A DNA stretch of 45,243 nt from Jimgerdemannia flammicorona (lineage: Eukaryota): the NCBI GenBank assembly GCA_003990765.1, contig RBNJ01000063.1, forward strand, positions 1-45,243, in the 5' to 3' direction. Below are positions 493 to 40,708 of this stretch, one piece after another (position 1 is the stretch's first letter; the number at the start of each line of letters is the position of its first letter). The notes under the pieces were generated by a model that ran no database searches, had not been told where the DNA came from, and saw only the letters and a list, made by a program, of their open reading frames with translations. The translations under genes and the position numbers were made by a program.

Positions 493-2051
493 TGTTATAT
501 AGTAGTTACTGAGTTCTTCAAATATACCAGATTCTCTTCAAGGTGTATCTCTTAGATTAACTCAAGTTTGTTATAAGCAAGTTCTTATTGGAGTGTCTTC
601 CCAAGGTCTTATAGTCCTCAAACTTCTTATCTTTAAACTGTCTTGTTATCTCTTAGATTGCTTGTAAGAAAGTATATATATTGCACTAAGTAGACTAAGT
701 AGACTGACTTTATTTCAGAGGAAATAAGAGAGGTATTTATACAAAATATAATTCAATAATTGCTAAGATATAAAGCTAAATATAAATTCCAATAACTAAA
801 ATAAAATACCAGAATAGAAAAAACTGCTAAGTTCCAGAGTCAGTACTGATGATTATACAGATTCAGGATACTGATATAATTTTAGTAGTATAGGAAAATG
901 ATACTGGAATAATTCAGTATCATATCAGAATACTGGTGTTAGCATTATTCAGTATTACTAAAGGACTTTAGAGCAGAATTTTCAAGATCATAGGGGCTTC
1001 ATTCTCATCAGAGGTTATAATGTCTTCAAAGAAGATGAGGTCTGTAAATTTGTCATTAATCACATAGGTCACATGTTTCATGTATATTACATATCTCACA
1101 TATGTCACATGGGATGATGTCATTGCCGATGACATCATCACATTCAGCAGCAGTGAGAATAAGGAGGTCTGGGGCTCTCTAGTTTATGAGGTTCTCTTCC
1201 ACAAAATAGAAGACAAATGTGGGGTCTTGGAGAGGTCTAATCTGGATGCTTGGGCCTTGGAATACTGAGATCAATCCTTGTAGAAATTGGTCTGGATTGT
1301 CCTGGAGGATGGGATGCCAGAAGTCTTCTACTTCATCACTATTGAGAGTGATAGTGAACTGGGCTTCTATAGCCACCCTGGCTTCTAGTGCATTGATATG
1401 GTAGACTAATAGATATCTGAAATCTGAGACTCTAACATACTCTAAGTTGGGGATCGACCATGGTGCATGTCTGAAGATCTGATAGATCTTCTTAGCTATC
1501 CTTGTTTCATATATCTATGGGAGTAGCATCTTGTAGCTCTTGAGTGCTGGCCTGTGGGAACTCCCAGCAGAAGAGGTTTCCTATTTTGTACTCCTACCAT
1601 ATTTGGAGGCATTTGGTAGCAATGGTGATCCTTGTTTCCATTTTACAGTAGTAGAGGATATAATGATAAGAGTCACTAGTACCTAGGTTGACACTAGGAG
1701 TCCTTTTTGAGCAGATCCTCATGGCTCTTCTGATGTCTTAGAACATCTTTTCTTTAACTGAGGTACCTTGATAGTTCCTTGATCTTGAGGTTTGGTGAGC
1801 AGTAGGCATTTTATTTGTAGTAAGTCTTTGAGCTATTTTGGGATTGGTGGGTCTTGCTGGTTACTGCTACTGCAGTTCCTTGATCCTTCTTTTATATTCC
1901 TCAAGATACTCATACTGTGATCACAATGACTTACAGTTGGTCATCATTACTCATCTTATATGCTGTATGATCTTCTTGTGATCCAATCTAGTAGCTTGCA
2001 AGAAAAGGCTGTCTCCTATACTGATGTCATCATTCAGAGATCACTATTATA
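493..2051 (-). repeat. Gypsy-A 3' LTR
   Basis: Colinear with 21792-23355 over its full length; ends tgttata...tattata (decayed TG...CA); abuts the PPT. Confidence 0.92.
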
Positions 2052-2061
2052 TCTTCCTCCT
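2052..2061 (-). other. Polypurine tract of Gypsy-A
   Basis: Minus strand reads AGGAGGAAGA immediately before the 3' LTR. Confidence 0.8.
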
Positions 2062-2369
2062 AAATAAAGATCTTCTTGAATGTCCTTATTCATTGATTTA
2101 GTCCTGAAAAATTTACTGATTCTATAACCTCTGGTAAGGGGTCAAAAAGTAGTATTTATGGACTGGTGTCTTCTCTTTATATTTTGGCATGATAGTGAAG
2201 AGTCACTCCTTTTATATAGAGTAAGGGCCTGATTCTAATCTTGACCAATCAGTTGATGGTTCAAACTCCTCTGGCTTCGAAAGTCTTATGGATGAGTAGT
2301 TACTGGTGCTGTATCTCTTAGAGAATGATCCAGACAGATAGCCTGCTGGTCATGAGACATACTGTTATG

Positions 2370-3479
2370 ATTTATAGATTAGAACCTCACAGGTAGTCAT
2401 TATATTTTGCTTCTCTTATATAGGTTCATGATACTTCTTGAGTCTGTTCCTATGTACCATGATAGGTAGTATGGTTCCTGAGATTTTTCTAAGCCAGAAA
2501 GTAGTTCTCTTAATATCTTGCACATAGAAGAGTCTTTTCTATTTGGACTCCAGTTTTCACAACTATGAGGCTTTTACTATATTTTGATATAATAGGACCT
2601 TTTCTCCGATTTGGATGGGTTCTAGGGTCTTGTGATTCTTTTCTACATTCTTTCTTATCAGTACTTATAACTTGGTGATATAATCTTCAGCCTTCTTTCT
2701 GATTTGGTGTAGTCTCTGAATTTCTGCATTGACCTATCTCTAAGTTAGGTCTAGATTTATAGCTGAGATTCCATCAGAATCTTCTTCTCTGAAGAGCAGT
2801 TCTCTTGAGATAAAGTGTGTGCTCTGTGACCATATGTCTTATAGAACAGAGAGGGCAGTTGGGAGGTAGTTATCTAAATTCTCATATATCTCTGAGATCT
2901 TTGTCAGGATGTTCTTAAGAGTCTTATTGATTCTCTCTATCTGTCCATTTCCTTGAGAGTGGTATGCAGTAGTCTTGATGTGCTGAATCTTGTATTTCTG
3001 ATACATTATCTCATAGAATCCATTGACAAATTTTGTACCACAGTCTGTTGTGATTTACTTCAGTGTCTTGTAGTGGCAGATGATTTCTTAGTATAGGAAG
3101 TTGGCTATAGAGAGGATATTGGCTTCTTGTAATGCTCCTGCTTTTATCCATTTTATAAAGAGGTCTACAATAACTATAATATAGCAGTTTCTTGATAGTG
3201 TTACTGATAGTGGCCCAATGATATCCATTGCAATGTGGTGGAAGGGGATAGGCTCAATTCTTGATGACCCAGATGTCTGGTCTTGCTGATCTTATTTCTG
3301 TTTTTGGCACTTATCATACTCTTTGATATATTAGTGCAGGTCTTCTTCTATTTTGGACTACTACATAGTTCTTTTTATCTTGTTGTATATATTGGTTCCT
3401 CCTAGATATCCTTGCTTATGTACTTCCTTTATTACTTAATACTTCTTGTATTTGAGTATTATTAGCTTTTCTCCTTTTC
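2370..3479 (-). pseudogene. Gypsy-A integrase (degenerate)
   Basis: Minus-strand translation shows PFHHIAMDIIGPL, IVIVDLFIKW, TDCGTKF, TTAYHSQGNGQIERINKTL and a decayed GPF module (KLESK*KRLFYV); many premature stops. Confidence 0.88.
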
Positions 3480-3495
3480 TGAGTGTAGTATTGTC

Positions 3496-3497
<2 letters not shown>
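3480..3497. repeat. 18-bp target-site duplication, left copy (tgagtgtagtattgtcta)
   Basis: Identical to 17517-17534; directly followed by a poly(T) tract at 3498-3543. Confidence 0.95.
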
Positions 3498-3526
<29 letters not shown>

Positions 3527-3648
3527 CTTTTTCTTTTTTTCTTGGGCGTCAACAGCGATGTGACTGATTCATGCGAGCGGGGGTGGGTGACCGGGAATGG
3601 GAATGTACGTGATGATGGGCGCATCATGATTAAAAAAAATTTTGCAAG

Positions 3649-3773
3649 GGGTATGGGATGGCGTTCTAGACTTGGCAGGGGATTTTCTGAGTCAGGATTT
3701 AAGGGAGGATATCACCACCGCACGGGTACATGTCTCCCAGCTCAATCCCGACTCAAGCACTCGATCGTGGTGA
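3649..3773 (+). pseudogene. Candidate orphan terminal exon of a host gene (VWDGVLDLAGDFLSQDLREDITTARVHVSQLNPDSSTRSW*)
   Basis: CpG-intact host-like DNA; G-rich intron-like upstream stretch ending ttgcaag, then 40 open codons to TGA; no upstream exons in the window. Confidence 0.35.
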
Positions 3774-3865
3774 CACAATGCCCGAGATCTCTTTAGTGAG
3801 AGAGCCAGGAGAAATATGTTTTCGTTGATGATGATGTGACGTAGACTGCTGTAGTGATTGTTTAC

Positions 3866-3927
3866 AGTATAGTACTATGTTTTGACATAATTATGTAGTA
3901 TAGTACTATGTTTTGACATAATTATGT
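3866..3927. repeat. Perfect 31-bp tandem duplication
   Basis: agtatagtactatgttttgacataattatgt occurs at 3866-3896 and 3897-3927. Confidence 0.95.
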
Positions 3928-4295
3928 GTATATTTGTGAGATCATGTCAAAGGTGCAAAGCAGTCAGTGAGAGTGGTATGAGCTCACCTTTATAAGCAAG
4001 TAGATTACATTGTTAAGATTGGTAAACTCCTATAATATACAAGTCTCTCACTATATTTGGATGAGTATTTTGGCTTGAAACTTGAAAAACGATCTCTGTT
4101 ATACTAGAATCTAAATTTATTATAGTATACTTGGTCAAAAATTAATATACTGCTAGACAGAATTTAGTTTTTTTTTTTTTTTAAGATATCTATTATACTA
4201 AGTAATACTCTATAATAGTAAATATATAAGATTAGATAATTTAAAGTATATATAGTAAAAGAGAACTTATATATTTTATCTCTTTATATATATAG

Positions 4296-4890
4296 TTTAT
4301 TTTTATTTTTATTTTTATTTTTATTTTTATTTTTTTATTTTATAGACTCAAAGTTCTGCAGATTGTTATTAAAAGAGAATCTAGATTATATAGACCAAAA
4401 CTCTCCTCCACTACCTATTAAACACTATATTTTTATTAAATCTAGGCTAGCTATTATCTAGTAGCTTAACTATATTAAATACAGTAGAGCAAAGTTATCT
4501 ATATCTCATTTTATACACTATACTCTTCTTACTACCAGAGAGTAAACAACTATATATCTATAACTGAAGGCATATGTCTGAAACTCTAATATATGTACAA
4601 GGTTATGCCTAAGCTAATTCATATAGCTTCTGCTACTCTAAAGAGAGTGATAAGTAAAAAAAAACTCTCTTCAAAGTATAGAATAGTGAGTAGAACCTAG
4701 TTCTCTCTAATGAGATAAATAAAAAACTTATATATGAGATGAGAGAAGACCCCCAATACCTCACTACTTAAACCTGTAGACCTTAATCATATTACTATAT
4801 CAGCTTTTAGTTTCAGTTAAATACAGCCAAGATATCTAATTTGGATAATCATAGGCCCTCTGACTATCCTCAATAACTAGGGCCTAACTC
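4296..4890 (-). mobile_element. Older 5'-truncated copy of the 1.2-kb poly(A) retroelement
   Basis: 4342-4890 is colinear with ~16344-16890 but has more C>T/G>A changes; (TTTTTA)n tail at 4296-4341. Confidence 0.85.
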
Positions 4891-4894
4891 TATA

Positions 4895-5267
4895 TAGTAT
4901 TTCTAATAAATCAAAGGTCCAATTTAATTCAATTTGAATTAAATTAAAGGCCAATTTAATTTGAGGTCTAATTTGAACTCTATTTTTTAAAATTGAATAA
5001 CTCAATGTATATCTAAATTTGATAATCTTTAGCTTGTTAGATTCCTCTTATATAGGAGAATCTAATAAGCTAGAAATCATTAAATTTAGACATATATTCA
5101 TTAAGTTATTATATTTTGAAAAATAGAGTTCAAATTAGACCCTCAATTTAATTTGAATTTAATTCAATTCAAATTTGATTCAAATTAAAAAATCCCTAAT
5201 TTGATTTGATTTGAATGACTCTTAATTTGATTTAATTCAAATTGATTCAATTCATTTAAGAGCACTA
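4895..5267. mobile_element. MITE/foldback-like palindromic element
   Basis: Long imperfect inverted repeat centred near 5051 (ggtctaatttgaactctatttt ... aaaatagagttcaaattagacc; ttagattc ... gaatctaa) with many aattcaaatt-type subrepeats. Confidence 0.65.
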
Positions 5268-6183
5268 GATAGATATATCTAATGATCAATAATGAAATAA
5301 TAGATATTTTATCTATAAAAGAACAATTGAACTGATCTTGAATTACTATTGGTTATATATTAATTAAATATTTTAGAATGTAATCTAGAATGCAGAAGTA
5401 GATATGAGTAAGTCAAAAGAAGGTTCTTTATAATAGCTCTCCTTTGATTGTAGTAATATTAAGCCACATATGAGACAAAGATTAGAAAATCATTACTTAT
5501 CTTAATAAGTCTTAACAAGGATATGAACCAGGGCCAGACTCAACTGAGATCAAAGGTCAGATATGCTGGATAAAAGTTGGAGAATATATATGCCTGATAA
5601 TTAGAAATATAATTCTATTTTTAAATAATACTTAAATAATTATTAAAATTAAAAAATACTAACAAATACTTAAGATCAAATGAGATAAAAATTTTCAATC
5701 CAGATAAATCATAAGGTACTTTTTAATAAACTTTATAAATAATCTTCAATATTTAGAATAATAATATTTAAATATATAAGATTATTAAAAGGACATCTCC
5801 AGGTATATCTTAGTTTATATCCAAGTACTATTTGATCTATTATAACCTTCAGAATTACATAACTAAACGTATATTGAGCCTCTTGAGATCCCCTTGAGCG
5901 GCATTTCAATTTTGGCCAGGGAGCGTGAAGCTCAGTCATTTGTCATCAATGACTTGAATTATTAAGAGTGCATCATGTGTATAGGTATAAAAAAAACACG
6001 CTCTCCTCGCACACAGGAGGCCCGCTTGCATTTCTAATATACACACGGGGCCATATTATATACTCACAGAACCATATTGTTTCATCATTCATCTCACCCA
6101 CATCACATAATGTCAACATTTTCCATACAAGGGAATAATGGAGAATCCATCCACAACCCCGCCATCCCTCACCTCCTACCCTC

Positions 6184-7511
6184 TCAGTTCTTCTTCAAGG
6201 GCGCGAACTGCATCGAATCCTCGTAGTTCTTGGGGTCAATTTCGCGGAACCACGGCAGAATCGGCGGCAGGTTGTCCGGCTGGAGGTCGGGGTAGTGATC
6301 GCGGATCGCCGCTTGGACAGTGCGGTAAAGGACCTACAGCGTTGTGTTTGGAGGGGACCAACGAGGAACGTATGCGTAAGTGTATGTTTGGACAACGAGT
6401 GAAACGGAACGAGGAAGTGTGCCTAAAAACATAAAACGATCCATGACCCTTCCAAACAAAATGACCCCACGCGGTGACAACCCCTCGGAAAACCCACCTG
6501 GCTCCCCGCCGGCGCTAAATGCAGCCCGTCGCTCAAGAAATCGCTCAGCGGACGCCCACCGTTCACCCCCTTAACCCTCTCTCCAAACAAGCTCATTTGC
6601 GGCCCAACCTTGGTCACGACCGCCTTCCTTTCCTCCTCCTCAGCATCATACTCCCGGTCGACCTCTTTCATAATTGCAGCCCATACATCGACAACAGGCA
6701 CGCCGAGCCTAGCGCCAGTCTCCTTCACGGCACGGACGTACTCAAACGTGACGCGGGACAGACGATCGGGTTCCCTGCCTTCGCGGCGGCATCGCTCGGC
6801 CCATGTGTCCTCGTCTAGGACTGGCGGCGTGATGAAGAGGAGGCGCGTGTCCGGGTTGTAGTAGGGCGAGATGGGCGACTGAGTGAGCGAAGCGAGGATC
6901 TCGAGGTTGGAGACGTAGCGCGAGAGGGGGACGTGCTGGGAGGAGCCAGGGAGAGCCGCGTCATTGGCGCCGAAGAACACGGTTAGAAGGAGAATGTTGG
7001 AGCAAGTGGGGGCCGTGGTTGTTGGGAGGAGTTGTTTGAGGATGGGGATCGCCCAGTTCGTGTTGTAGCCTGGTGGGGCGGAGAAATGAACGGGTGGGTG
7101 AGGTATGCAACCACACTACGCGAAACCAGTGTATGAAGAGAATGGTTCTTCCACGTACCCGAAAACCCGCGGTTCATAACGTCGACCTTCCTTTGATAAT
7201 CCTAGCGCACACAAAAAAAAAAATCGGGTCCACAATGAGCGTCGCGTCGTCCCCGACACCAAACTCTAGAAAACCATCACTTCCTCCCGTACCTCCCATA
7301 ATCTCCAACACTCACATTAGCCAGCGAAGCTCCCCATCCAAAGTTCGGGTCGAAGCTGAGCTAATTCCCACGCCGAAAAGCAACTGTCAGTAACGCGGAG
7401 CGAGGCGCGCGGTCACAAAGAACAAAAAATAATGGTCGTCAAGTACACCTGGGTGATGGAGTCGCCAAACAGGACGATTTGGTTGTAGACGTGGTTCATC
7501 GTGATGCGCAT
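6184..7511 (-). CDS. IAH1: SGNH/GDSL hydrolase, isoamyl-acetate-hydrolysing esterase IAH1-like (5 exons)
   Basis: Spliced model with GT-AG introns gives IVLFGDSITQ, VMNRGFSGYNT, FFGANDAA and SDGLHL (all four SGNH blocks), ending ...QFAPLKKN*. Confidence 0.9.
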
Positions 7512-8467
7512 CTTTTGGTACTGAACCAGGAAACTCTCCAATTATACCAATTATAAATAATTTTGATCACGTGTTTTCAGATCTCTGAATCAGATCGTGA
7601 GGAATTCCTTCTGAAACATGGTTTGAGATATTGAGTTTTTCACAACCCAATACCTTTTATAAAGGGCTAGTCCTAGAGTAATTTTTTAGTGCTTTGAAGA
7701 GTTGAATTTAAAATTTAACCAAGGAACATTTATACATGATTTCAAAAGCTATCTAGTAGTATTATTGTTCGAGGGTTGAGAGATTGTGTGAAGCACATCA
7801 TCAAACAAGCAAAGAAGTATTATGCCAAACAAACAAAAGAAATGAAGACCACAAGATCAATAGGTATCATTAGTCTGGCTTTCTGTTTTAGGTATCAATT
7901 TTGTATTTTTATTTCACAACCAGATACGAGATAGAAATGGTGGATTGGAACGGGAGAGAAAACGAATTGAAAAGAATATAAGGCAAAATGAGCATGAAAA
8001 GGATCAAACGAGATGTGGCGACTTCGATAAGAGACAGTACACACGAGAAAAACAAGTGATTGATATGATACATAGCTCAAAGAACGTCAGTGCGTCCTCA
8101 AGCCACCAAATCGACAACAGCAGGTCCGAGTTGATGCCAGAAGTCACGAGTGATTTCACGTCAAGACCGTCGTGAGCTGACAGAGATCCGTGAGCAGCTT
8201 CGTCGGCAGACCGCAGAGAGGAAGAGGAAGAGAAAAGGAGATCCAGTAGTCAAGAAAAGGACGAATAGAGAGCAGCATGATGGAAGGAAAGAATCCGAGA
8301 AGACTCCTAACTTTCTTTAGATCCAGCAAGCCCATTCTACCGCGGAATTCTATCTACTAATTATCAAAGTAGCTAAGAAAAAGGAAATCCTATATACACT
8401 TTTACATTCCAAAATACCCCATCACCCATATCCACGTCTACAGAGCCACAACATTCCGCCTCCTATC

Positions 8468-10422
8468 CTATCGCCTTCCCGGGCTCGGCGTCCTAGGCCC
8501 ACTCCTCCGATCCCTCACGGGGCTCGCCGACCTCCTCCCGACATACGACGGACCGATGAGCCTGTTGGAGCGTGGCGGGGGGCTCAAGGACCGACGCGTG
8601 GGCCTATGACATACGCGAGCACAGAAGTTTCGAGAACACGTCAATTCGAATCCCACACACACCGCAAACCAAAACCCGCGCATCCCCAAAAGACTCACCT
8701 ATACGACCTCCCTGGCGACGTCTGCCTCTGCTCCAGATATCTCAGCACGGGCGACCTGCTGTTCCTTCTATACCCCGGCGTGATCACGTCTCTAGCGCGA
8801 TCGTACCCCCTAGGCGAGCTCCTCTCCCTGTACGGCGGGTACCTATCATGCTGCGGCGGGAGCGGGGGCACGCGACGATCGTAAGGGTCGCGATCGAAGG
8901 GGGACGATCCGTTCCGCGACGGGGGGTAATAACCCGCGCCTGGACGATCGTAGGATGTTGACGACGGAGGGTCGCGGTACGAGGACGGTGGGGGCGGTGG
9001 CGCGTAGGGGTCGCGGTCCGAGTACGGAGGACGGTCGTAAGAACGATCGTATGTGCTGCGAGGAACGGGCGGGAGCGGAGGTAGAGCGTAATCGCGACGG
9101 TATTCATCTCCGGGGCGGGAGTAGCGGTCTGAAGAGGGAATTGAGAGTGGTGGGGCGCGGTCGTAGGAGCGATCGTATGTACGGTCGTAGGCGCGATCGT
9201 AAGCGCGATCATAGGAGCGATCGTAAGAGCGGTCGTAGGAGCGATCGAGGGGGGGCGGGGGTGGAAGCGAAGGGGGACCATAGCGAGAGCCAGAGAGACG
9301 GTCGTAGGTGGCACGAGAAGTGTAGGCGCCCGAGATGGGACGGTCGTAGGTTGGAGTTGGTGGAGGACGGGAAGAGCGAGAAGAGTCGTGGCTGGTGGTG
9401 TCGAGATCAAGTGCATACATTGGGTACGGATGAGAAGGGATGGAATGGATTAGTTTGAGCCCCGGTTTGGTTTCATCGACGTCGTAAGAGTCACGTCGGA
9501 GAGCAGAGATTCGCTGAGCCATTCCAATCCACATCAAGCGGTATTAGGCCCAAGAAGTAATAGTCCATTTCACAAAGAATCAATCTGCGCGCCGTAATTT
9601 TCCACCTCCTCGCTGCATCATAAAGCACAAAAACCACAACCTCTTACCTAGTGCACTCCCTTGCAAAATGCCCGAGCCCACCGCATTTGAAGCACGCGCC
9701 GTCGCCACTCAGAGACCCGCGCTGCCTCGGCTTCCCACCGATCTCCGACAAAGCCAGCTCGACGCGAATGTGCTGGCCTAGGAAGTCGGTGCCGTTGAAC
9801 TGCTGGATGGCATCGTCACAGCTACGTCGATCTTCGTATTCCTTTGTGATGCAAACGTGAGGAGACAAGGAGGAGCAAAGAAGAGGCAGGCCAAAGGGAA
9901 AAGACATAATGAAAAAAAAAGAGGGCGAAGAGAGGTAGAAATGTGAAATGTGCAAAGGGGAGAGAGAGAGAGAGAGCCCATGATTGTCGAAGGGGAAAAG
10001 AGCAAAGGAATTTTGTGAGTGGGTCTGCTTCCTGCATTGATTGAGATGGTTGCGGGTTTAGCTTGAATCCGACGGAGAGAGAGCGGATACCAAAAAGAGC
10101 CCGGCTGTGAGCAGGCAAGTGATTGAAGAGCGCTTCCGTAGTCGCCAGGCTAACGAACCAGACGCGGTCACGGTCTCCAAAATCAGAGACTTCCTGCCTA
10201 GTGCGTAGCTCACCGTACTCAAGCAAGACGGATCCTGGAAAAATCCTCTTCCGTGACCAGAATCGGCTCAGATGACTCAGCTATGTCAGGAACACTTACG
10301 ACGAACCCGAACCCGTTCTTGGTCTCAATGTTGACAATCATACCGCACTTCCCAAAGTAGTCCTTGTAGTCCTCAGGCCTGGCGCGCTCGGGAACGTTGC
10401 CAATGTAGATCTTGTGGGGCAT
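8468..10422 (-). CDS. SR-type RNA-binding/splicing protein: RRM + CCHC zinc knuckle + R/D/S/P-rich tail (SRSF7/RSZ-like architecture; 4 exons)
   Basis: MPHKIYIGNV (RNP2), KNGFGFV|EYE (RNP1 split by an intron), CFKCGGLGHFAREC. Exons 10422-10300, 9841-9648, 9391-8699 and a final exon ending at 8468; GT-AG boundaries. Confidence 0.88.
9160..9248 (-). repeat. Coding 12-bp tandem repeat (YDRx)n
   Basis: Encodes DRSYDRSYDRSYDRAYDRAYDRTYDRSYDRA. Confidence 0.85.
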
Positions 10423-10732
10423 GATGGAACTTTTTGTCGTGTTGGTTGGAGCTGCCTGTATCCGCAAGAGCGAGCGAGGGAGTTCACAAGGGGATGCCGG
10501 CGGGTTGGAGGTTTGACGGAGGGGTGTTTGCTGACAATCTAGCATAGGATGTCACAATGCCGCGGAAGGGGAGCGAGCGGATGGGTCATTTTTTTCTGTT
10601 GTCAACACATCTAACGTCACAGACACATGACTGGTGAAGTCACATGGGCTGCCAGTCTTTGGTTCGGCTCTTTGGTTCGGCCCTTCTTTAGCCGTTCTAC
10701 CCCATTCCTTTCCTTTCCTCTCCCAACATACC
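10423..10732. promoter_or_regulatory. Short divergent (bidirectional) promoter/5'UTR region
   Basis: 310 bp between head-to-head start codons, with pyrimidine-rich tracts upstream of each ATG on its own strand. Confidence 0.55.
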
Positions 10733-11842
10733 ATGATTGCACGCTCTGCCCCGAGAGTCCCTCAGATCCTGCTTCACCTGGCAGGCATGGCTTCCTTCTC
10801 TTACTCCTTCTGGACCCTCGCCCACATGACTAACAAGGCCTCGGCCTCGTTTGGCTGGCACTTCCAGGTGAGCAACACTGGCTCGACTTGTGCGGCATCT
10901 GCTCCGTTACCAACTACGGCGCGTTATCTTATGAACTTTGGCGTCGTTCTGTGAACGTATGCACCACGGCTCTCTCGCTCAACTGTGCTCACCTCTTACT
11001 CCCCAATAGCACCTCACCATCCTCGGCCTCCTTTTCTCCACCGTAACGTTCATTATCCTGATTATACGGGACATTATGCCAGACTCAATGATAGGTGAGG
11101 ACAATATATAATTGAATTTTTATCGCCTCATATAGTAGCACTTCCTATCAGATGAAGAACTAATTCGCACATCGACAAACGATCCAGGTGCCCACGAATT
11201 CTTCACGGCCATCACCGTCCCGGTATGTCCAAACCACTGACCCGCTCCCATTCGCTCCTTCTCGAATATTCCCTTCAAAGAGCTCATTTTACCCACGTAC
11301 TAACCATCTTCCCTTTCGAAAATTCCCAGCTCGAGGGCCTCATCTCAATCCTTTATTGGTCTCTCCTTTACTACGACGAGCGCCTCCTCAAGCACCCCGA
11401 CGTCGCCGCCCTCCCCATCATTGTCGACCTCTCCTTCCACCTCTTCCCCGCCGTTCTTCTCTGGGCCGATTTCCTCTTTTTCTCCCGTCAGTTCGCCCGC
11501 TCCGCCCGCCACATCACCTACATCTTCGTATTCGGCGCCGCCTACTGCGTCTGGACTCACCTCTGCTTCCAACAGAATGGCTTTTGGCCCTACCCCATCC
11601 TCGAAAAGCTGCCCACGCCGTACAGGATCGCGTTTTTTGTTGCTTGCGCGGCGTTCTGTACTCTCGTATATGAGTTTGGTGAGTTAAGGGGGGGCTGCAG
11701 TGGGTGGAATAGAATCCCGGTCAAACCGGCCATCATTTTGCTTGATTTTCTTACCAAAACCACGCTGATTTTGTCATCAGGCGCCCGTCTTCACCGGTTC
11801 TTCAATAAACCTCTGGAGACCTTGACCAAAAAGATCCAGTAG
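10733..11842 (+). CDS. FAR-17a/AIG1-like multi-pass membrane protein (5 exons)
   Basis: FGWHFQ|HLTILGL, LEGLISILYW, DLSFHLFPAVLLWADF and NGFWPYPIL motifs; the Thr and His positions typical of the AIG1/ADTRP family are present; GT-AG introns. Confidence 0.88.
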
Positions 11843-12381
11843 TAGGTATAAAACAAGACCGAGTTCGTTTGCATATAGCATTTCATTTCGAGTAATACAA
11901 CCACATACAGATGTTTGTCTGGACATGATAGATTTTTATTTTCTGGCTTATTGTTACGATTAAGAATATAACCTATCCCGATTGTGTTCGTTGGGCCGAT
12001 TTCATTTGTGCGGAACGCTTCCACTTTGGCAATTGAAAGTACATAAATATATACATTAATTAATGCGACCAAACTCAGAAATTTGATCTGAGATGGGACT
12101 CCAGGGACAAAGTCGCTGACATCACAGCAACCATGTGACCAAAGCTGCCCCAACCCACCAACCCTCCTCCTCTCCCTCATCTCTCCCCAATTCCCCTCCC
12201 CCTCATTATTCCACGCGGACACACATTCGGCCCAATACCCCACTCGCCGATCGATTGCCTCGCCCGGACGCCCTGTCATTCGCTGGTTGTAAATATTTGT
12301 CTTACAAACCTCCCACTCCATTCCTTCCCCCTTTCTCCCTCCCCCCCTTCCCCTCCCCCACATCCCACTCTTTCTTAATAT

Positions 12382-15300
12382 ATGTATCAGCGCAGAGGCT
12401 GGCGATGGCGACCGGCAGCCTTGTTAGGCGTCGCGGCGTTGTGTGTGGTATGCGTCGCGCCGATGCCAGCGAGGGGCATGCCCAACGAGCGGAGGCTATG
12501 GCTGAGGTGAGCGAGGGCTTTGATTTCTTTGACACCCAAAGTAGATCTTAGGGTTTGAGAGGTACTTGCTTCGTTAACTTACGCTATGTTTTGTGTCTCC
12601 GATGTCTTTGTAGGGATGCCGCCAAGGTACGAAACGCGTAAAACCCCTATTTACTATTTTAAGGCAGATTCGCATGTGTTTCGTCGCTAACCTCAAAGCA
12701 CATGCTGCCCAGGAAATGTTCTATCACGGCTGGAACAACTACATGAAGTACGCCTTCCCGAAGGACGAGGTATGGAAGTCTAACAGGCTTCTAGGGCGGG
12801 CATTGTGGTTGGACCTGATCGGATATCCTCAAATCAAATGCCATTTTTGACACCTCGTATTGCGCCTTCAGCTGAACCCGATCCTTTGCAACGGTCGTGG
12901 GAGCGATAAGAAGAACCCGTAAGTTCACCTTCCCATCCGTGCCTTATATGAATTTTGTCGTGGATCGTCTTTATCTCATATCCCACGCCCCTTTCTCCTC
13001 GATATTCGATATCCTCGTGAACGCAGGTCAAACATCAACATCAACGATGCCCTCGGCGACTACTCTCTGACCCTCGTCGACACGCTCGACACGCTCGCGG
13101 TTGGTATCGGTTCTCTTTTTCGACATTTCCCTTGTAATGTGCCGCCCTGGCTACCACGCTTATTGACCCTTGCTCGTTTACATTATCAAACTCCACCCAG
13201 ATCCTCGGCGATCAGGCCGAGTTCGAGCGCGCCGTACGTTTGACGATTGCCACCGTCCATTTTGACCTCGACAGCCGCGTACAGGTCTTTGAGGCCAATA
13301 TCCGCATGTTGGGCGGGCTGGTGCGTTGCTGGGGCGAGGATCCCTTTTTTTTTTTTTTTTTTTTTCATAATGTTTTCTGTGACACGAATGCTGACCATAT
13401 CGTCTCGTACCTCATAGCTCTCGGCCCATCTACTCGCTACCGATCGCACGCTCGGGTACTTCATCAAAGACTACAACGGCGAACTCTTGGACATGGCGCA
13501 GGACCTCGCGAAGAGGCTGATGCCGGCGTTCCAGTTGTCTAGGACGGGGATACCGTATCCGAGGGTGCGTGTGGGACTCTTTGGCCTGGCTTTGGATGGT
13601 GTGTGATGTGAGGTCGAAGTTTTAGATTCGTGTGATGACTGATGTTTATTTTGTGTCGGGTTCGGCCTGGTATGGGTGTGTAGGTGAATTTGCGGTACGG
13701 CGTCCCTAAGACGGAGACGGTGGAGACATGCGCGGCAGGGGCGGGGAGCTTGATTCTCGAGTTCGGCGTCCTTAGCCGGTTGACAAATACCAGCATATAC
13801 GAGGTACACTTTTTTTTTTAAAAAAAAAAGTTTCGATATGCAATATCTCCCATCCTCATTCGTCATCCATCTCCCGCAGGACGCAGCCAAACGATCCCTC
13901 CACGCAATCTGGGACCGGCGCTCGGCCCTTGGGTTGGTGGGCAACGTGATCAACCTGCAGACAGGCCAGTGGATCCACACGGCGTCGTCAACAGGTGCCG
14001 GCATCGACTCCTTCTTTGAGTACATGCTCAAGGCCTACGTTCTATTCGGCGAGGATGAGTATCTTGACATGTTCCGCGAAGCCTACGGCTCCATCATGAA
14101 GTACATCCGCGACCCAACGGGATACCTCTACCGAAACGTCCACATGACCAACGGTGGGCTCATGAGCAGCTGGGTCGATAGCTTGAGTGCATATTTTGTG
14201 GGGTTGCAGGTTGGTTTTAGGTGGGGACCGGGGGTGGGGTGGAGCCACGAGGTGCGAGCTTGGGTGGTCGTGGAAAGTGACTGTTATATGGACTGGATGC
14301 CTAATGACTTAACGGTCATGGCGTGAAGGTTCGTTGCGCAGTACCGGGTTTTGATCCCAGCACGTGAAGAGAAATGATGAATATCTGTTTGGTCCGTGTT
14401 TCTGAGGCAGATTAGACCCTGTCACATGAATACACCATATTCTAAACTTTCTGACTCTTTGGCATGCCATTTTCCACGAACCGCCATTTTCCACGAATCC
14501 AAGAATTTTGTCATTATTATCGCACTGAAAAAGGATCCTGACCATCACGAATTCGTTTCAGGTCCTCGCCGGTGATCTAGACTCGGCCATCAAATCGCAC
14601 CTCTTCTACTACAATATTTGGCGCAAGTATCGGTCGCTTCCAGAGCGGTTTGACTTCTATCTTCGCAGTGTCAACATCGCCACTTACCCGCTCCGCCCGG
14701 AGTTCGTCGAGTCCACCTATTTCCTCTACCGCGCCACCCGTGACCCATTCTATCTGCGCGTCGGCGAGATGATCCTCGAGGACCTGAATAATACCACGCG
14801 CGTCGCGTGCGGGTTCGCCACCGTCGGTGATGTCATCGGGAGGAAGCTCGAAGATAGGATGGAAAGCTTTGCATTGAGCGAAACATTCAAGTATTTGTTT
14901 TTGCTATTTGATGTGGGTGAGTATGAGGAGAGGAACGGGGATGAAATGTATGGTGGTGAAGCTGTTGTGAAGTGATGGGCGGCAGAATGTGTATTAGTTT
15001 GGTTTTATTGGTTTTGTTATGGTGTTGTGCGTTCTAAATCAATTCACTTACTTCGCGACCTCATGGACCATTGCAGATCATCCTGTCAACACCTTGGATT
15101 CTAATTTCGTCTTCACTACTGGTATGTCTGATTTGCGTAAGTGTTGCAATACTCTTATGTGGTTCGTTTCACTCATACATCACCTCAAATTATTGATTGA
15201 TTCCAGAGGGCCATATATTGCCACTTCCACGGCAATACCTGCATTCGAAGCGACATCGACCGGTGCCGTTCTACTCTGATGACAACGACGCACTCACCGA

Positions 15301-15867
15301 GATCTCTGCCTTCCTCCCCTCCCCCAACTCCTGCCCCGTCTACCAACCCGGTCAAACACCCTCCCGGCACCACCACTACCACCGGCGTGCGCACCCCCAA
15401 AAACTCTCCCACACAAACATAGGCCTCACCCCCCTGACTGCCTTTTCCCGCCCTACCTACCCCTCCTCCTCCCCTTATACCGCCACCACAAGTACCACCT
15501 TCTCCCACCACGCCCACTCGGCCATCCTCTCCCGCCCCGACGCCGACTTCGCCCGCGAGCTCGTCGGCCTCGACGACGACCACATCCCGCCCCTAGACCC
15601 GCGTGGGTACTGCGAGGCCCCCAACCTCCTTCCGCAAACTGTCGAGCTCACTTTCGGGTACCCCGCCGGCACCACCAGCAACGGTAACAACCAGGCGGGA
15701 CAGCAAGGACACGCGCAACAGCAAGCTGCCGATACTCAGGACGTCGGCTGGTCGCCCACCGTCGTTAAGTTCCTCGGCGGGCTCGTCGCCACTACCCTGG
15801 CAGGGCTCAAGGTTGAGCTAACTAAGCGCTCGTCCAGGCAGGGCGCTGGGTACGACGTCACCAAAGG
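12382..15867 (+). CDS. MNL1: EDEM/Mnl1-like GH47 alpha-1,2-mannosidase; multi-exon, apparently 3'-truncated
   Basis: Signal-peptide-like start ([21 protein letters not shown]), [62 protein letters not shown]. The last exon ends at a donor (AAAG|gttagt) with no convincing downstream exon. Confidence 0.88.
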
Positions 15868-16135
15868 TTAGTAGCGACGCGCGGCGGTGCGCGGGCGTGC
15901 GGAGGGTGGTGAGAGGCAATTGTGGCGTGGGATACAGGTGGGTTCAACTTGTGGGGATATTCCGTGATGTCCCTGTTTGCTTACCTTAGGTTGGTGTTGG
16001 TAGATGGGTTTGTTTCTTTTGTTGGATGCGCCCAAGGGTATTGTCGCCTTTTTATTGTGGGCGCGTGCACCTTGGTTAAAATTCGGTAGTTAATATAATA
16101 GTCATTATCGCGGTACATGCTTGCCGAATGCCTCA

Positions 16136-16251
16136 TTTTCGTTTCTTTTTTCTTTTCTTTTTTTTTTTTCCCCCTATACATACATACATACATACATACA
16201 TACTACATTCATACATACATACATACATACATACATACATACATACATACA

Positions 16252-16289
<38 letters not shown>

Positions 16290-16297
16290 CTTTTTTT

Positions 16298-16330
<33 letters not shown>

Positions 16331-16343
16331 TTTTTTTTATTTT
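16136..16343. repeat. T-rich tract + (TACA)n microsatellite + long poly(T) tail
   Basis: T/C tract ~16136-16170, (CATA)n 16174-16251, poly(T) with rare interruptions 16254-16343. Confidence 0.95.
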
Positions 16344-17516
16344 AATGGACTCATGTTCCATGGAATTTTATTGGAAGGGAACCTAGACTATATAGGCCAA
16401 AACTCTCCCCCACCACCCACCAAGCACTGCCCCCTCATTAATCTAGGCTAGCTATTGTCCAGCAGCTCAACCATGCCAGGTGCAGCAGGGCCTATGTTGG
16501 CTCACACCTCATTCTGCGCACCATGCTCTCTCTACCACCAGGGGAAATCCAACCATATACTAATGACCAAAAGTGCACGCCTGAGAACCCAATATATATA
16601 TAAGGCTATGCCTGAGCCAAATAGAATAGCCTCTGCTATCCTAAAGAGAATGACAGGCAAAGAAAAACCCTCATCAAAGTACAACATGATGGGTAGGGCC
16701 TGGTTCTCCCAGTCAAGGTGAGTAAAGGACTTATATGTGAGGCAGGAGGAAGCCCCTAATACCCCACTACTCAAGCCTGCAAGCCTCAATCACATTGCTA
16801 TATCAGCTTCCAGTTCTAGTTGAGTATAGCCAAGATGCCTGAAATGGGTAGCCTCAGGCCCCCCGACCCCCCCTGATGACTGGGGCCTAACCCCACTGAC
16901 TGCTAAAAGAAGCTGAGAGTAACACCTACTACCTAACTACACCACACCAATCAAAAGGCCCCACCAAAGCAGTACCTGCCCCAGCCCCAATGACCGCTCC
17001 CAGCCTGGCACCTGACTGGTTCACCATTAACATTCTTCCTCCTATCTGTGATAGCCATCTCCTCTCCCATCCTGACAATACTCAAAAAGCAGTCACCTAT
17101 GCTAGAACTGTGCTCACTGGGAAGCTTGCCAAAGCCAGAGGGCCCCACCACAGGCACCGAAGACCTGCAGGTAACCTATACTGAGCACTTGATGCCCAAG
17201 GTTGGCCGACTCTCTATTAGTCCAAGATATACTGAGACAATACCTTGTTGACAATGGCAAAAGGAAGAAGGTACCACACCAAAATGGGTATACCCCAGAT
17301 ACAGCTGAAGGCACCAGAATCTGCAAAAAAGTGGAGGAAGCACCAATCTGATACTGATAAAGGGGCAACTCATCACTATTGCCCTCCTCTCACCATGCCC
17401 CTGCAGGCACAGCAAACCAACCTGAGGTAGAGAGGGTAATATTAGGGGAAAGAGGACTCAGAAGGTCATCTACCAAACCTTGTGACCAGTAAGATAGCAA
17501 AGAAAGGAGTTGGCCT
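16254..17516 (-). mobile_element. ~1.2-kb poly(A)-tailed retroelement, probably non-autonomous
   Basis: Poly(A) tail on the minus strand, second copy at 4296-4890, no recognisable RT/EN motifs; terminal motifs resemble the LINE ends; 5' end abuts the TSD. Confidence 0.75.
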
Positions 17517-17534
17517 TGAGTGTAGTATTGTCTA
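17517..17534. repeat. 18-bp target-site duplication, right copy
   Basis: tgagtgtagtattgtcta, identical to 3480-3497. Confidence 0.95.
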
Positions 17535-19100
17535 GTTCAAACTATTTCTAAGTCTGGTTGATGATAGTGATTGTCCAGGGTTTGAGATGGTTGGATATCT
17601 TCTACTGCCCAAGGTAGCTAATTAATCTATAGTATAACTCCTTATTCATATTGAATAATCTTGATGGAGGTATTTCAGGGTGTCCTTGAGAGTGCATCAG
17701 TATTGGTGTTGGTTCTTCCTGAGCAGTGCTTAACAGTATAGTCATACTCTTGCAGCCTGTAGATCTATATGGTATATATTCCTTTAGAGTTCAGAGTGTG
17801 GAATAGCCAGGCAAGAGCAGAATGATCTGTTTGAATAGTGAAGTATTTCTTAGCTAGATAGTAGTGGAACTTGTCTACTGCCCAAACTACTGCTAAGTAT
17901 TTGAGCTTGTATGTATGACTCATAGTTCTGTTCTGCTCCATGGGTACCTCAGTTTGTATAGGAGATGATATATTCATATCTATCTTTCTTCTGAGTCAGA
18001 ACTGATCTAAGTCCTATAGTGCTTGCATCTGTCTACAGGATGAATTCTAGATTCCAATCTGGTCTTCTGAGGATAGGTGCTTGGGTCAACCTGGTCTTGA
18101 GTTTATTGAAGATTTCTTAGCATTCCTTAGTCCATTTGAATTTAGTTTTCTTCTTCAGTAGCTTGTAAATAGGTACTGTAATATTGGAGTATCTTTTGAT
18201 GAATCTTCTATAGTAGCTGGCTAGTCCAAGAAAGGTGTGGACTTCTGTAGTTGTTCTGGGTCTTGGGTAGGCTGCAACAGCCTCAATCTTTATGGGGTCT
18301 GTGTGGATTCTGGTCTGGTTGATGAGGTGTCCTAGGTAGGCAATTTCTTGAGCTACAAACTTACATTTCTTGGGCTTGATGTAGAGGCCATACTCCTTGA
18401 GCTTCTTGAGGGCTAGCTATATATGGTTGATATATTCCTGCACAGTATTGCTGAAGATGATTATATCATCAATATAGACAAAGAGCCATTTTCCAATCTT
18501 GTTGCTGAAGACTCTATTCATTATTAACTAAAAACTTGCTAGGGTATTGCATATTTCAAATGGTATTTACAGGTAGATATAGGTGGCATCAGGTGTGATG
18601 AAGGCTGATTTCTCACTAGCATCTTGAGTGAGACCAATCTGATGGAAGTCTGAGAACAGATCTAAGGTGGTGTAGTATTTGGCTTCACTTCCAAGAGTAG
18701 TAAGGATTTCTTAAATATTTGACAAGGGCTGTCTATCCTTCTTAGTGATTGCATTGAGCTTCCTGTAGTCAATGTAGAGTCTTGGTGCAAACTCTCTAGG
18801 CTTGCTTTCTTTCTTTAAGGTAAGAATAATGGGTGAAGCCCAGGGACTAATAGCTTGCTTAATAATTCTAGCTTCTTCTATTTTCTTGAGTTCTGCTCAC
18901 AGCCATTCTCTGTAGGCAGGTAGTATAGGTCTGGCCTTCTGATAGATGGGCTTGGTATCACTAGTATCAACTTCATGGTAGTACTTGGGTTCTTGATTGT
19001 AGATATCCCTGAAGTCTGTAGCAAGTACTCCTTCATTCTGGTGCAGAATCTTAAGAAGTTGTTCTTCCAGGGGAAAGTTTTCTCCAATGATATATGTGTG
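17535..19100 (-). pseudogene. Gypsy-A reverse transcriptase and RNase H (degenerate)
   Basis: SPWASPII, RLYIDYRKLNAIT, FVYIDDIIIFS, FLGLASYYRRFI, TDASTIGLRSVL, TDHSALAWL, DALSR. Confidence 0.92.
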
Positions 19101-19165
19101 CTTATTCTGGTCTCTGTCTTTCTTATGCTCAAGTTTGGTAATCTTGGTAGTGGCATAGGCTCCTC

Positions 19166-19577
19166 TTCCAGTAGGTTCAAAGTCTTGTTCTTCTCTCTTG
19201 GTCTTAATGAGTTTGATGGCTTCAGTGATCTTGGGCTTCTTGATTTCATAGATCAGCATCTGGCCAATCCTGTTATACTTCTTGAATTCAAATGGAGTGG
19301 TGGGGTTGTGATTCCAGACTATGAGAAAGATCTCACCAGTGTAATCAGAGTCAATTACTCCTCTTTCAACTGAGATTTCACTTTTGGCCAGACTGCTCCT
19401 GGTCTTGATAATTCTGATATGATTCTCTGATAGCTTGACTCCAATTCCAGTGCCAAGTAGGATGGTGGTCTGTGGTTTAAGAGTAGTATCTTTAATGCTG
19501 GCAAGGTCTATTCCTATGGCTCCTTCAGTCTTGTATTCTGGGATCTTGGCTTCAGGGTAAAACTTCTTGACCTTGAG
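19166..19577 (-). pseudogene. Gypsy-A dUTPase domain (between PR and RT)
   Basis: KVKKFYPEAKIPEYKTEGAIGIDL, RSSLA, GVIDSDYTGEI, NRIGQMLI and REEQDFEPTG match the five trimeric dUTPase motifs. Confidence 0.88.
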
Positions 19578-19943
19578 AGTGATGTCTAATTCTTATTCCT
19601 CCTCATCATCACTATCAGCTTGAAGCTCAGGGAGCTGGTTATCTTCTTTGACTTTCCTTTTTACTTCAGCAGCTTCTTGCTCATGTTTCTGTTGGCAGAT
19701 TTTCCTAACTTCACTGATATAGGACCAGCAGTCATTCAGGTATTCAGAGCAGTATATCCTAGTACTATAGGGGCATCTTTCTTGAGAGGCATAGCTATTG
19801 ATGATCTTGTTATACTACTGCTCATCTGTGAGCTTGAGTGTCTTGTTCTTGTTCTTATTCACCAAGTGCATAAAGACTTCTGTGTCTTCTTTATCTCCTT
19901 TCTCTATGTCTGGTAGGACTTCTTTATGGACATTGATAGAGAC

Positions 19944-21735: not shown

Positions 21736-21770
21736 TTTTCAGCTTGAAAGTGAGGGATTCATCTTGAATT

Positions 21771-21788
21771 ACCAGCCAATGGGTACCA
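21771..21788 (-). other. Primer-binding site of Gypsy-A
   Basis: TGGTACCCATTGGCTGGT begins 3 nt inside the 5' LTR; cognate tRNA not identified. Confidence 0.75.
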
Positions 21789-21791
21789 AGT

Positions 21792-40706: not shown

Positions 40707-40708
<2 letters not shown>

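Follow-up and report, generated by a model that had tools for sequence, protein, structure and literature searches.

The question raised by this locus, i.e., a window of 45,243 nucleotides comprising the whole stretch of DNA analysed, from Jimgerdemannia flammicorona or a close relative, is how four host genes, together with their introns and intergenic regions, came to lie inside the pol gene of a Gypsy retroelement. The boundaries of the gene-bearing insert are of the type left by target-primed reverse transcription (TPRT) and its internal architecture is that of a 3' transduction; both features are real. The 18-mer TGAGTGTAGTATTGTCTA is present in the window as two exact copies, at 3480-3497 and 17517-17534 (both on the plus strand), precisely where the first-pass annotation had located it, and a search allowing up to three mismatches returned no others; in a shuffle control, two or more matches were obtained in 0 of 100 shuffles. 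As the bases outside the two copies differ, the repeat is exactly 18 nt long. The left copy of this target-site duplication (TSD) encodes, on the minus strand, the residues LDNTTL of the Gypsy pol gene, and the right copy repeats it exactly. The insert enclosed between them (3498-17516) measures 14,019 bp.

The target was a single, once continuous Gypsy pol gene, and the element was already dead when it received the block. The insert plus one copy of the 18-mer amounts to 14,037 bp (3 x 4,679 bp), the removal of which restores the pol frame at a point that precedes the integrase zinc domain by 19 codons, so that the earlier claim of a rejoined Gypsy frame holds, with minus-strand frame 0 on both sides of the break, namely '..K*FE' followed by 'LDNTTL' (the 18-mer itself) on the right side, and 'LDNTTL' followed by 'RKGEKLIIL..' on the left side. 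When stops are translated as X, Integrase_H2C2 is recognised on the left side over residues 20-69 (27.7 bits for a cut-off of 25.5), while rve reaches 26.4 bits there, i.e., under the cut-off of 32.6; RT_RNaseH is found at 17768-17995, one frameshift away in this degenerate Gypsy copy. On the minus strand, the 3' part of the host element (493-3479) is composed of the 3' LTR (493-2051) and the integrase region (H2C2, rve), which is degenerate with many stops, while the 5' part (17535-23355) carries RNase H, reverse transcriptase, dUTPase, protease, the gag CCHC motif and the 5' LTR (21792-23355). The two LTRs are identical at 1356 of 1558 aligned positions (87%), and a possible 4-bp TSD of the Gypsy element itself, TTAT, is weak as the surrounding DNA is AT-rich. 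The flanks thus keep one order and one phase and lie within one pair of LTRs, and they belong to a single Gypsy element and not to two copies. A second Gypsy element of the window (43.4-45.2 kb) has no usable DNA similarity to the insertion site, with one 25-nt match, and serves as a guide at the protein level only.

Read along the minus strand, the insert is ordered as follows: (i) a retroelement of 1,172 nt, hereafter E1, (ii) its A tail of 91 nt, (iii) a genomic stretch of 12,713 nt that holds four genes and their intergenic regions, and (iv) a terminal A tail of 43 nt. These measurements bear out the succession of retroelement, poly(A), about 12.7 kb with four host genes and second poly(A) that had been described for this strand at first pass. 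E1 (16345-17516, minus strand) is a non-coding poly(A) retroelement with a GC content of 0.49, is not hypermutated, and its 5' end adjoins the right TSD copy; its own tail (16254-16344, minus strand; about 91 nt) contains runs of 36 and 30, and corresponds on the plus strand to a T run scored at 16254-16343 as a repeat of period 1 with 90 copies. The terminal tail (3498-3540, minus strand; 43 nt, 29 of them pure) appears as a T run on the plus strand and directly adjoins the left TSD copy, so the second poly(A) does touch the TSD, as had been noted. Neither AATAAA nor ATTAAA occurs within the 580 nt upstream of this terminal tail, although fungal signals are degenerate; the tail starts in an A-rich AAGAAAAAAAGAAAAAG stretch, where internal priming could be its origin.

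Four host genes lie in the block between the two tails, which is unmutated and has a GC content of 0.52. The gene closest to the terminal tail encodes a GDSL/SGNH esterase (6184-7499, minus strand; five exons, four GT-AG introns, 286 aa), with the blocks GDS, GFSG, GAND and DGLH in order. It is followed by an RRM and CCHC zinc-knuckle protein with a YDRS-repeat tail (8695-10422, minus strand; three exons, two GT-AG introns, 337 aa), the RRM domain of which is split by intron 1, and the spliced models of both genes are open. On the opposite strand lie a FAR-17a/AIG1-like membrane protein (main ORF at about 11156-11842, plus strand; 96.2 bits) and a GH47/EDEM-like mannosidase (about 12701-15871, plus strand), which covers residues about 24-638 of an 863-aa homologue. 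The two genes with the orientation of the proposed RNA have thus kept every intron, i.e., 6 of 6, all canonical GT-AG (4 of 4 in the GDSL gene and 2 of 2 in the RRM-CCHC gene). The EDEM gene is probably truncated in the block, judging from its sequence and that of its homologues: its last exon ends in AAAG followed by GTTAGT at 15866, and the exons for the PA domain, present in 4 of 4 full-length homologues, are absent from the window. The stretch that directly follows the tail of E1 (15867-16253, plus strand), with (ATAC)19 at 16176-16251, would then be an EDEM intron or else its 3' flank. The first-pass placement of E1 in an EDEM intron is thus plausible with respect to the exon end and the missing PA-domain part, but ..VT[KR]G is also the point where nine further gene models from Mucoromycotina stop, and a natural gene end there is possible. 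A search for the PA-domain part as a separate short model (P0004 residues 640-863 against shorter proteins) gave six matches, none named Jimgerdemannia.

Besides E1, the block contains a second, degenerate copy of the same element with its own tail (E2), and an A15 run at 4168-4182, both of which had escaped the first-pass annotation. E2 (4296-4893, minus strand) consists of a 5'-truncated element at about 4345-4893 and a (TTTATT)n tail at 4296-4343. It is identical to E1 at 383 of 554 positions (69%), the differences including 149 transitions and 22 transversions, and the identity rises to 95.6% in a purine/pyrimidine alphabet. The 5' 620 nt of E1 have no homology to 4894-5950, even in that reduced alphabet, so E2 either is 5'-truncated or had its 5' part replaced. 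The existence of E2 makes E a repeat family, and the A-rich tails of both copies together with the 5' truncation of E2 are the behaviour of a LINE-dependent retroelement family. For E1, Rfam gave no matches, a tRNA scan gave none and no SINE-type head was found. No TSD of their own was found at k>=7 for E1 alone or for the last stretch of the block, X2, alone, and only one TA-rich 9-mer for E2 alone; E1 and the terminal tail are of one polarity, and none of the 1,172 nt of E1 repeats the DNA that follows its tail. From these three observations, i.e., the lack of an own TSD, the shared polarity and the lack of such a copy, it follows that the insert has its 5' edge at the boundary of E or within it, which is what a transcript initiated in E would lead one to expect.

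Between the GDSL gene and the terminal tail, E2 is part of a repeat patch. It is preceded by an AT-rich spacer (4894-5950, GC content of 0.24) with a palindromic stretch at 4907-5203 and is followed on the minus strand by X1 (4168-4295), which is short, AT-rich and ends in the internal A15 run, and by X2 (3541-4166), the last stretch of the insert before the tail. X2 is AT-rich from 3851, with a 31-bp tandem duplication at 3866-3932, while 3541-3850 is unmutated, unique-looking DNA with a GC content of 0.50; the 3' edge of the insert therefore falls in unmutated unique DNA and not at the end of a repeat. Two candidate roles for this patch were rejected. A use of E2 as a recombination arm was ruled out, E2 being hypermutated over its whole length and E1 not, and so was an old small insertion from E2 to X2 with the rest arriving later, there being no A tail at 4893/4894 and the last 310 nt of X2 being unmutated.

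The reading we tentatively regard as the most likely is that the template was an unprocessed read-through RNA from E1, copied by TPRT. One LINE-type event would have placed into the dead Gypsy a 14,019-bp copy of another chromosomal locus, starting at E1 as a young 1,172-nt non-coding poly(A) retroelement and continuing past its 91-nt tail into the EDEM 3' region, EDEM, the AIG1-like gene, the RRM-CCHC gene and the GDSL gene, then across the old hypermutated repeat patch including E2 and about 310 nt of unique DNA. The 43-nt A tail would have been added at a staggered break, and it is this break that would have given rise to the 18-bp duplication. The transcript would have started in E1, and would have been neither spliced nor cleaved at internal 3'-end signals; we infer such a full-length RNA template, a promoter in E1, the full length of E1 and a donor locus. 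The 5' end of E1 at 17516 is thereby assumed to be the true end of the family, and it counts against this reading that the window has no other full E copy. The donor locus would be expected to show the same succession of E1, its tail, (GTAT)n and EDEM, and to have, upstream of E1, a TSD that starts GGTGTATG... The enzymes would have come from a LINE like the degenerate copies with APE and RT at 25.3-30.7 kb and 34.5-40.7 kb of the window; these LINE copies match RVT_1 (44.6 bits) and, weakly, Exo_endo_phos (20.9 bits, under the cut-off of 24.5), have an 80-nt A tail, and share with the last 20 nt of E a weak 3'-end pattern, AGTC[CT]A..ATAAAA.

In its proposal that a short retroelement moved a multi-gene segment, the first-pass annotation is supported by the TSD, the tail, the element in the same orientation and the four genes, but not by the retention of 6 of 6 sense introns, as a 3' transduction through RNA predicts the loss of introns from genes in sense. 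A plain copy of an RNA is therefore doubtful, and an RNA intermediate that had undergone normal processing is contradicted. In mouse cells, marked intron retention has been linked to read-through into neighbouring genes (PMC9732411), and unspliced read-through RNA thus has a precedent as far as described there; the read-in retention in that report mostly affects first introns and not all of them, which counts against the complete retention seen here (PMC9732411). A read-through RNA must further extend beyond the 3'-end signals of both complete genes in sense, the tails of E1 and E2, and 15 AATAAA and 6 ATTAAA hexamers; that all these hexamers should be bypassed and the RNA then end without a hexamer within 580 nt weighs against it. 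The insert, at 14 kb, is also more than twice as long as the LINE copies of the window. Known L1 and SVA transductions range from tens of nucleotides to a few kilobases, and 14 kb is far beyond this. A copy-and-paste event would have left a 12.7-kb duplicate open to hypermutation, and as the block is unmutated, either the event is very recent or the block is single-copy.

Another reading keeps the retroelement ends and changes the template in between. TPRT would start on a shorter poly(A) or A-rich donor RNA (X2, perhaps to the GDSL 3' region) and finish on DNA, the nascent cDNA invading the identical donor chromosome, with DNA extension of about 10-12 kb (SDSA/BIR-like) joined across the staggered break. 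We consider it possible but rather doubtful, and judge it no more probable that LINE machinery relocates or duplicates a multi-gene block with introns and promoters in this way, through an RNA-to-DNA template switch or cDNA-primed break-induced synthesis. It accounts for the TSD and the A tail together with the 6 of 6 sense introns, the promoters and the intergenic DNA, no bypass of internal 3'-end signals is required, and the invasion need only take place somewhere in the stretch of about 2.8 kb that separates the tail from the last GDSL intron. In cell-culture assays reportedly described by Gilbert in 2002 and by Symer in 2002, nascent L1 cDNA recombined with genomic copies, which speaks in the same direction. 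This reading gives no reason, however, for copying to stop at a retroelement of the same orientation with an intact tail and without any upstream donor flank: the stop point at E1 becomes a coincidence, the odds of which are roughly the length of E1 divided by the range of plausible tract lengths. We also know of no documented case in natural genomes in which TPRT was followed by more than 10 kb of copying from a distant locus.

The retained introns would equally be accounted for by two successive steps, in which a small retro-insertion from E to X2 (e.g., a spliced or shortened read-through copy) makes the TSD and a later conversion or double crossover fills in the 12 kb by ectopic exchange with the parental locus, E and X2 acting as homology arms. 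The layout of an E arm, 12 kb and an X2 arm resembles a gap-repair product, and a reciprocal exchange would leave a single-copy block, consistent with the absence of hypermutation. But the first RNA must still join E1 to X2, which are 12.7 kb apart at the parental locus, so that read-through is required all the same; E2, only 69% identical to E1, is unusable as an arm, and more events are needed than in the other models, making this scenario improbable. An assembly chimera, in which a short TSD-flanked insertion is real and the gene block was added by two false joins in repeats, appears quite improbable. It draws on the 240-Mb genome of this species, reported to hold more than 77% repeats (PMC10386755), and on a search with the intact 231-aa dUTPase ORF of the host Gypsy, in which 2 proteins among 305 candidates matched at E<=1e-10 (61% and 37% identity), neither of them an identical match in another assembly, so that the search says little either way. 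Yet two false joins are required; the left one must fall in X2, the last 310 nt of which are unique-looking, or in the 43-nt homopolymer, both too short for a long-read overlap; the 45-kb window is gap-free; and a public J. flammicorona EDEM model maps at 100% / 99.55% (one 1-residue gap) to 14426-15868, with the same end, the junctions lying outside that match. Finally, the genes might never have been retro-inserted and stand at their ancestral place between two Gypsy copies, or be the cargo of a DNA transposon (Starship, Helitron or Pack-type), as their intact appearance and own intergenic regions would allow. This is highly improbable: the two Gypsy halves are complementary (IN on one side, RH-RT-PR-gag on the other), co-oriented and in phase, the 18-mer sits exactly at the break and the LTRs pair, whilst transposase, tyrosine recombinase, helicase and RT domains are absent from 118 of the 122 insert ORFs of at least 55 aa (the four left out run across the T tract). 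Over the same 118 of 122 ORFs, a test for Starships and DNA transposons returned no captain tyrosine recombinase or transposase Pfam domain, and neither end of the insert was reported to have a terminal inverted repeat.

Under the favoured reading of a read-through copy from E1, the insert is best compared with L1 and SVA 3' transductions, the general mechanism of which, i.e., read-through followed by TPRT, is outlined in PMC9917352. The likeness extends to the succession of element, own A tail, unique flank and second A tail within one long TSD (18 bp here), and to the same polarity of element and terminal tail. In contrast to these, the flank is here 12.7 kb long, its four genes are distributed over the two strands, 6 of 6 sense introns are kept, and the source is a 1.2-kb non-coding fungal element instead of L1. 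The SVA-mediated copies of AMAC1 studied by Xing in 2006 are said to lose the intron. A literature search on long or fungal 3' transductions gave nothing specific, from which absence from print is not claimed. Processed retrocopies and retrogenes made by LINE machinery likewise end in an A tail and are flanked by a TSD, the target being non-specific, but are intron-less single mRNAs without promoters, whereas introns, promoters and intergenic DNA are all found in the insert. L1-associated rearrangements and chimeric insertions share a TPRT start at one end, and their DNA-level copying would explain introns; those attributed to Gilbert in 2002, Symer in 2002 and Rodriguez-Martin in 2020 are reportedly local deletions, duplications or chimeras between L1 copies, in which a clean TSD is often missing, and we know of no description of a clean 18-bp TSD that encloses 12 kb of copied DNA from a distant locus. 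Gene capture by DNA transposons (Pack-MULEs, Helitrons, Starships) also brings intron-bearing host genes into a mobile unit, but here TIRs, captain, helicase and transposase are lacking and the ends are the 5' end of a retroelement and an A tail.

If the junctions are real, this would be either the largest 3' transduction by far known to us, with four genes complete with promoters and introns, or a case of TPRT finished on chromosomal DNA, and in both cases a working multi-gene block would have reached heterochromatin-like repeat DNA in one step through machinery of the LINE type. The locus bears as such on the scattering of genes among repeats in expanded fungal genomes and on the origin of dispersed segmental duplications. 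Should the reading with a switch to DNA be true, a 'retro' insertion with a clean TSD would be mostly a DNA copy, and repeat-rich genomes would have a new way of acquiring dispersed segmental duplications.

As a side observation on the repeats of the locus, the sequence context of the transitions could be tabulated, the RIP-like pattern data being those of three repeat pairs in one window. Between E2 and E1, the share of C that was changed is 67% when A follows, 39% when C follows and 31% when T follows. Between the two Gypsy LTRs, with 196 transitions and 6 transversions, the corresponding shares of variable C/T sites are 36% (A follows), 45% (C follows) and 5% (T follows).

The 18-mer TGAGTGTAGTATTGTCTA occurs as two exact copies in the 45,243-bp window (3480-3497 and 17517-17534), which lie 14,019 bp apart as the first-pass annotation had claimed, with no third copy in the window even at 3 mismatches and with two matches in 0 of 100 dinucleotide-preserving shuffles. 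Since the bases outside both copies differ on either side, this target-site duplication (TSD) is exactly 18 nt long. The left copy adjoins a 43-nt T run starting at 3498, 29 nt of it pure, i.e., the terminal A tail closing the insert on its minus-strand reading.

The host Gypsy element lies on the minus strand between direct repeats corresponding to its LTRs (493-2051 and 21792-23355; 1356 of 1558 aligned positions identical). Domain matches on that strand comprise gag CCHC, aspartic protease, dUTPase (83 bits), RT fragments and RT_RNaseH (17768-17995) to the right of the insert, and integrase parts to its left. In the left-side frame (minus-strand frame 0 from 3498, stops read as X), residues 20-69 match Integrase_H2C2 with 27.7 bits (cut-off 25.5), and residues 84-180 match rve with 26.4 bits, under its cut-off of 32.6. 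Frame 0 leads from '..K*FE' into the 18-mer (LDNTTL) on the right side and continues from the left-side 18-mer as 'RKGEKLIIL..'; the insert plus one TSD copy amounts to 14,037 bp, i.e., 3 x 4,679, and the phase of pol is therefore preserved. Domain order, common frame 0 and this divisibility by 3 uphold the earlier proposal of a once-continuous pol split between RNase H and integrase. Numerous stops, and a shift from frame 1 in RNase H to frame 0 at the insertion site, mark the host Gypsy as dead. Its dUTPase domain (PF00692), between protease and RT at 18897-19592 (-), sits in an intact ORF of 231 aa, the closest database proteins being merely 61% and 37% identical. A protein search for the same Gypsy copy in public Jimgerdemannia flammicorona annotations returned nothing usable. 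A second, unrelated Gypsy at 43400-45243 (-), with RNase H end, H2C2, integrase and Tf2-type SH3, extends past the window end, and no DNA similarity was found between it and the host Gypsy.

Read on the minus strand, the insert starts with a retroelement, E1 (17516-16345; 1,172 nt, GC 0.49), and its A tail of ~91 nt (16344-16254), followed by (GTAT)19 and DNA downstream of the last exon of a GH47/EDEM-like mannosidase gene (EDEM), then by four genes, namely EDEM (+), FAR-17a/AIG1-like (+), RRM+CCHC (-) and GDSL/SGNH esterase (-), an AT-rich patch (5950-3851, GC 0.24-0.31), ~310 nt of unmutated DNA (3850-3541, GC 0.50) and the terminal tail abutting the left TSD. This agrees with the layout and lengths first described, i.e., a 1.2-kb element, its poly(A), ~12.7 kb with four genes and a second poly(A). 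E1 gave no Pfam match in any ORF scanned and no Rfam or tRNA match. Missing from the first description is E2, a second copy at about 4893-4345 inside the AT-rich patch, oriented as E1 and followed by a degenerate (TTTATT)n tail belonging to it (4296-4343); beyond 4893 it is 5'-truncated or replaced. Recoded as purines and pyrimidines, E2 matches E1 positions 16355-16896 at 95.6% identity over 543 nt. With all four letters kept, the two agree at 383 of 554 positions and differ by 22 transversions and by 149 transitions, the latter nearly always C-to-T or G-to-A in E2. Because of this second, tailed copy, E is a genuine family of A-tailed repeats, which would be expected of a LINE-dependent non-autonomous element. 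E2 (old) was already inside the block when E1 (young) became its 5' edge; E1 lacks a separate TSD, and no donor flank lies upstream of it. The AT-rich patch also holds an A15 run (4182-4168). A palindromic, AT-rich stretch (4907-5203; arms of ~90-300 nt, 82-89% complementary) immediately precedes the truncated E2 and could be a foldback or a small inverted-repeat element, and the last transduced stretch before the terminal tail, X2 (3541-4166), contains an unexplained 31-bp tandem duplication (3866-3932; 2.2 copies, 97% identical).

The EDEM exon at 14529-14975 is 100% identical to P0001, an NCBI entry named 'LOW QUALITY PROTEIN: glycoside hydrolase [Jimgerdemannia flammicorona]', which maps onto 14426-15868 (100% / 99.55% identity, a single 1-residue gap); in the exon search (700 proteins at E<=0.001 among 1097 candidates), the following matches, from Glomeromycotina and other Mucoromycota, reach at most 79% identity. 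These matches assign the window to J. flammicorona or to a species very close to it. In all four full-length homologues (816-991 aa), the alignment stops at their residues 599-638, and their C-terminal PA-domain part has no match anywhere in the 45 kb at E<=0.01. At 15866 the last EDEM exon terminates as AAAG|GTTAGT, which would make a credible splice donor, and 5 of 16 aligned proteins extend >200 residues past the window's EDEM end point. Splice donor and missing PA part speak for the suggestion that E1 lies in an EDEM intron; against it, ten Mucoromycotina models (P0001, P0008, P0015, P0016, P0017, P0019, P0024, P0028, P0035 and P0066) stop at or within 14 residues of ..VT[KR]G in the same alignment (window 15840-15871), and one further model stops 7 residues after that position. 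Either a conserved intron cuts many models short at the shared end, or the protein naturally ends there in some Mucoromycotina, in which case the PA domain would have disappeared several times or in a common ancestor; relatives of these models run on into the PA domain. From these alignments, EDEM is probably truncated by E1. A protein search for the missing part in public J. flammicorona annotations gave nothing usable. A pure T21 run within the EDEM gene region (13345-13365) is unexplained.

Judged by the terminal A tail, any RNA intermediate would have had minus-strand sense, and two of the four genes are sense to it. The GDSL/SGNH esterase (286 aa; exons 7499-7449, 7360-7316, 7201-7159, 7069-6498 and 6333-6184) has the SGNH blocks GDS, GFSG, GAND and DGLH ordered over exons 1, 3 and 4, and four GT-AG introns of 88, 114, 89 and 164 nt. 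The RRM-CCHC gene (337 aa; exons 10422-10300, 9841-9648 and 9391-8695) is split by two GT-AG introns: one of 458 nt, which interrupts the RRM between GFGFV and EYEDRR (Pfam half-domains), and one of 256 nt. Its long C-terminal tail (8900-9330, -) consists of YDR[SA] repeats arising from a 12-nt periodic repeat (9157-9247) and is an SR-like or RD-like tail of low complexity.

In architecture, the insert is a 3' transduction as described in general terms for L1/SVA (PMC9917352), three of six defining features being present, namely one TSD, a 5' source element with its tail and a terminal tail; the RNA signature, i.e., sense introns spliced out, is absent. With its introns and promoters, it is no processed retrocopy; nor is it DNA-transposon cargo, since a search of 118 of its 122 ORFs revealed no enzyme domain and its ends bear no terminal repeats. 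The RNA-mediated 3' transduction initially put forward is backed by the TSD, the tails and the element-first order, but all six sense-gene introns are kept, which is evidence against a normally processed RNA since a Pol II transcript from E1 would normally lose them. Such a transcript would also cross the 3' ends of both sense genes and both E tails, as well as 15 AATAAA and 6 ATTAAA hexamers, with neither hexamer within 580 nt of its proposed end. Intron retention and the signals to be bypassed speak strongly but not absolutely against a normally processed RNA. Stressed mouse cells show marked intron retention, mainly of first introns, in association with read-through into genes downstream (PMC9732411).

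Given marks of target-primed reverse transcription (TPRT) at both ends, any such model needs a nucleic acid joining E1 to X2, 12.7 kb apart. The leading, tentative model, somewhat short of an even chance, is that a transcript started in E1, read through to X2 and then underwent TPRT into Gypsy; as E1 lacks its own TSD and upstream donor flank, the start of the insert would be explained by read-through from E, and only this model accounts without coincidence for a same-polarity retroelement there. A hybrid, in which TPRT starts and the cDNA then invades and is extended along the donor chromosome, would explain introns, promoters and signal bypass but leaves the E1 edge a coincidence, and appears rather unlikely. 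L1 cDNA recombination is reportedly known, and the AMAC1 copies, attributed to Xing in 2006, are said to be intron-less.

A short retro-insertion followed by gene conversion still requires the same RNA linking E1 to X2, plus further events, and is improbable; E2 was rejected as a homology arm for it, being hypermutated over its full length whereas E1 is not. A chimeric assembly is more doubtful still, as it requires two false joins, and one of these would fall in a 43-nt homopolymer or in DNA that looks unique. Non-retro explanations are very remote, and the remainder of the probability is assigned to no model. There is a substantial chance that the mechanism differs from textbook 3' transduction.

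Two degenerate, mutually inverted LINE copies are candidate machinery (25300-30700, -; 34500-40711, +), with RVT_1 at 44.6 bits and Exo_endo_phos at 20.9 bits, below its cut-off of 24.5; an A tail of ~80 nt ends the plus-strand copy. LINE and E 3' ends have a short AGTC[CT]A..ATAAAA pattern in common, a weak lead. The copies stand head to head, 72-82% complementary, with a weak APE; on their sense strands purines strongly predominate and C is scarce (in the plus copy, G is 0.30, C 0.12 and GC skew ~+0.46). The A-tailed 3' ends at 40598-40711 and 42287-42342 share ..AGTCCAAGT[AG]ACTATAAAA.., which at the ends of E1 and E2 is shortened to GAGTC[CT]A..ATAAAA, a hint that E uses the 3' end of this LINE family.

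The J. flammicorona (Endogonales) genome is given as ~240 Mb with >77% repeats in a review (PMC10386755). Three repeat pairs in this one window bear RIP-like transition hypermutation, a pattern that would be of note in an Endogonales fungus because a kingdom-wide screen reports such signatures as unique to ascomycetes (PMC12543289). The LTR pair (493-2051 vs 21792-23355) differs by 196 transitions and 6 transversions, CpG is gone, and its C/T sites vary in 36% of cases where A follows, in 45% where C follows and in 5% where T follows. The LINE pair (25726-28800 vs 36396-39770) differs by 655 transitions and 227 transversions, and in E2 vs E1 (4345-4893 vs 16355-16896) C before A is altered in 67%.
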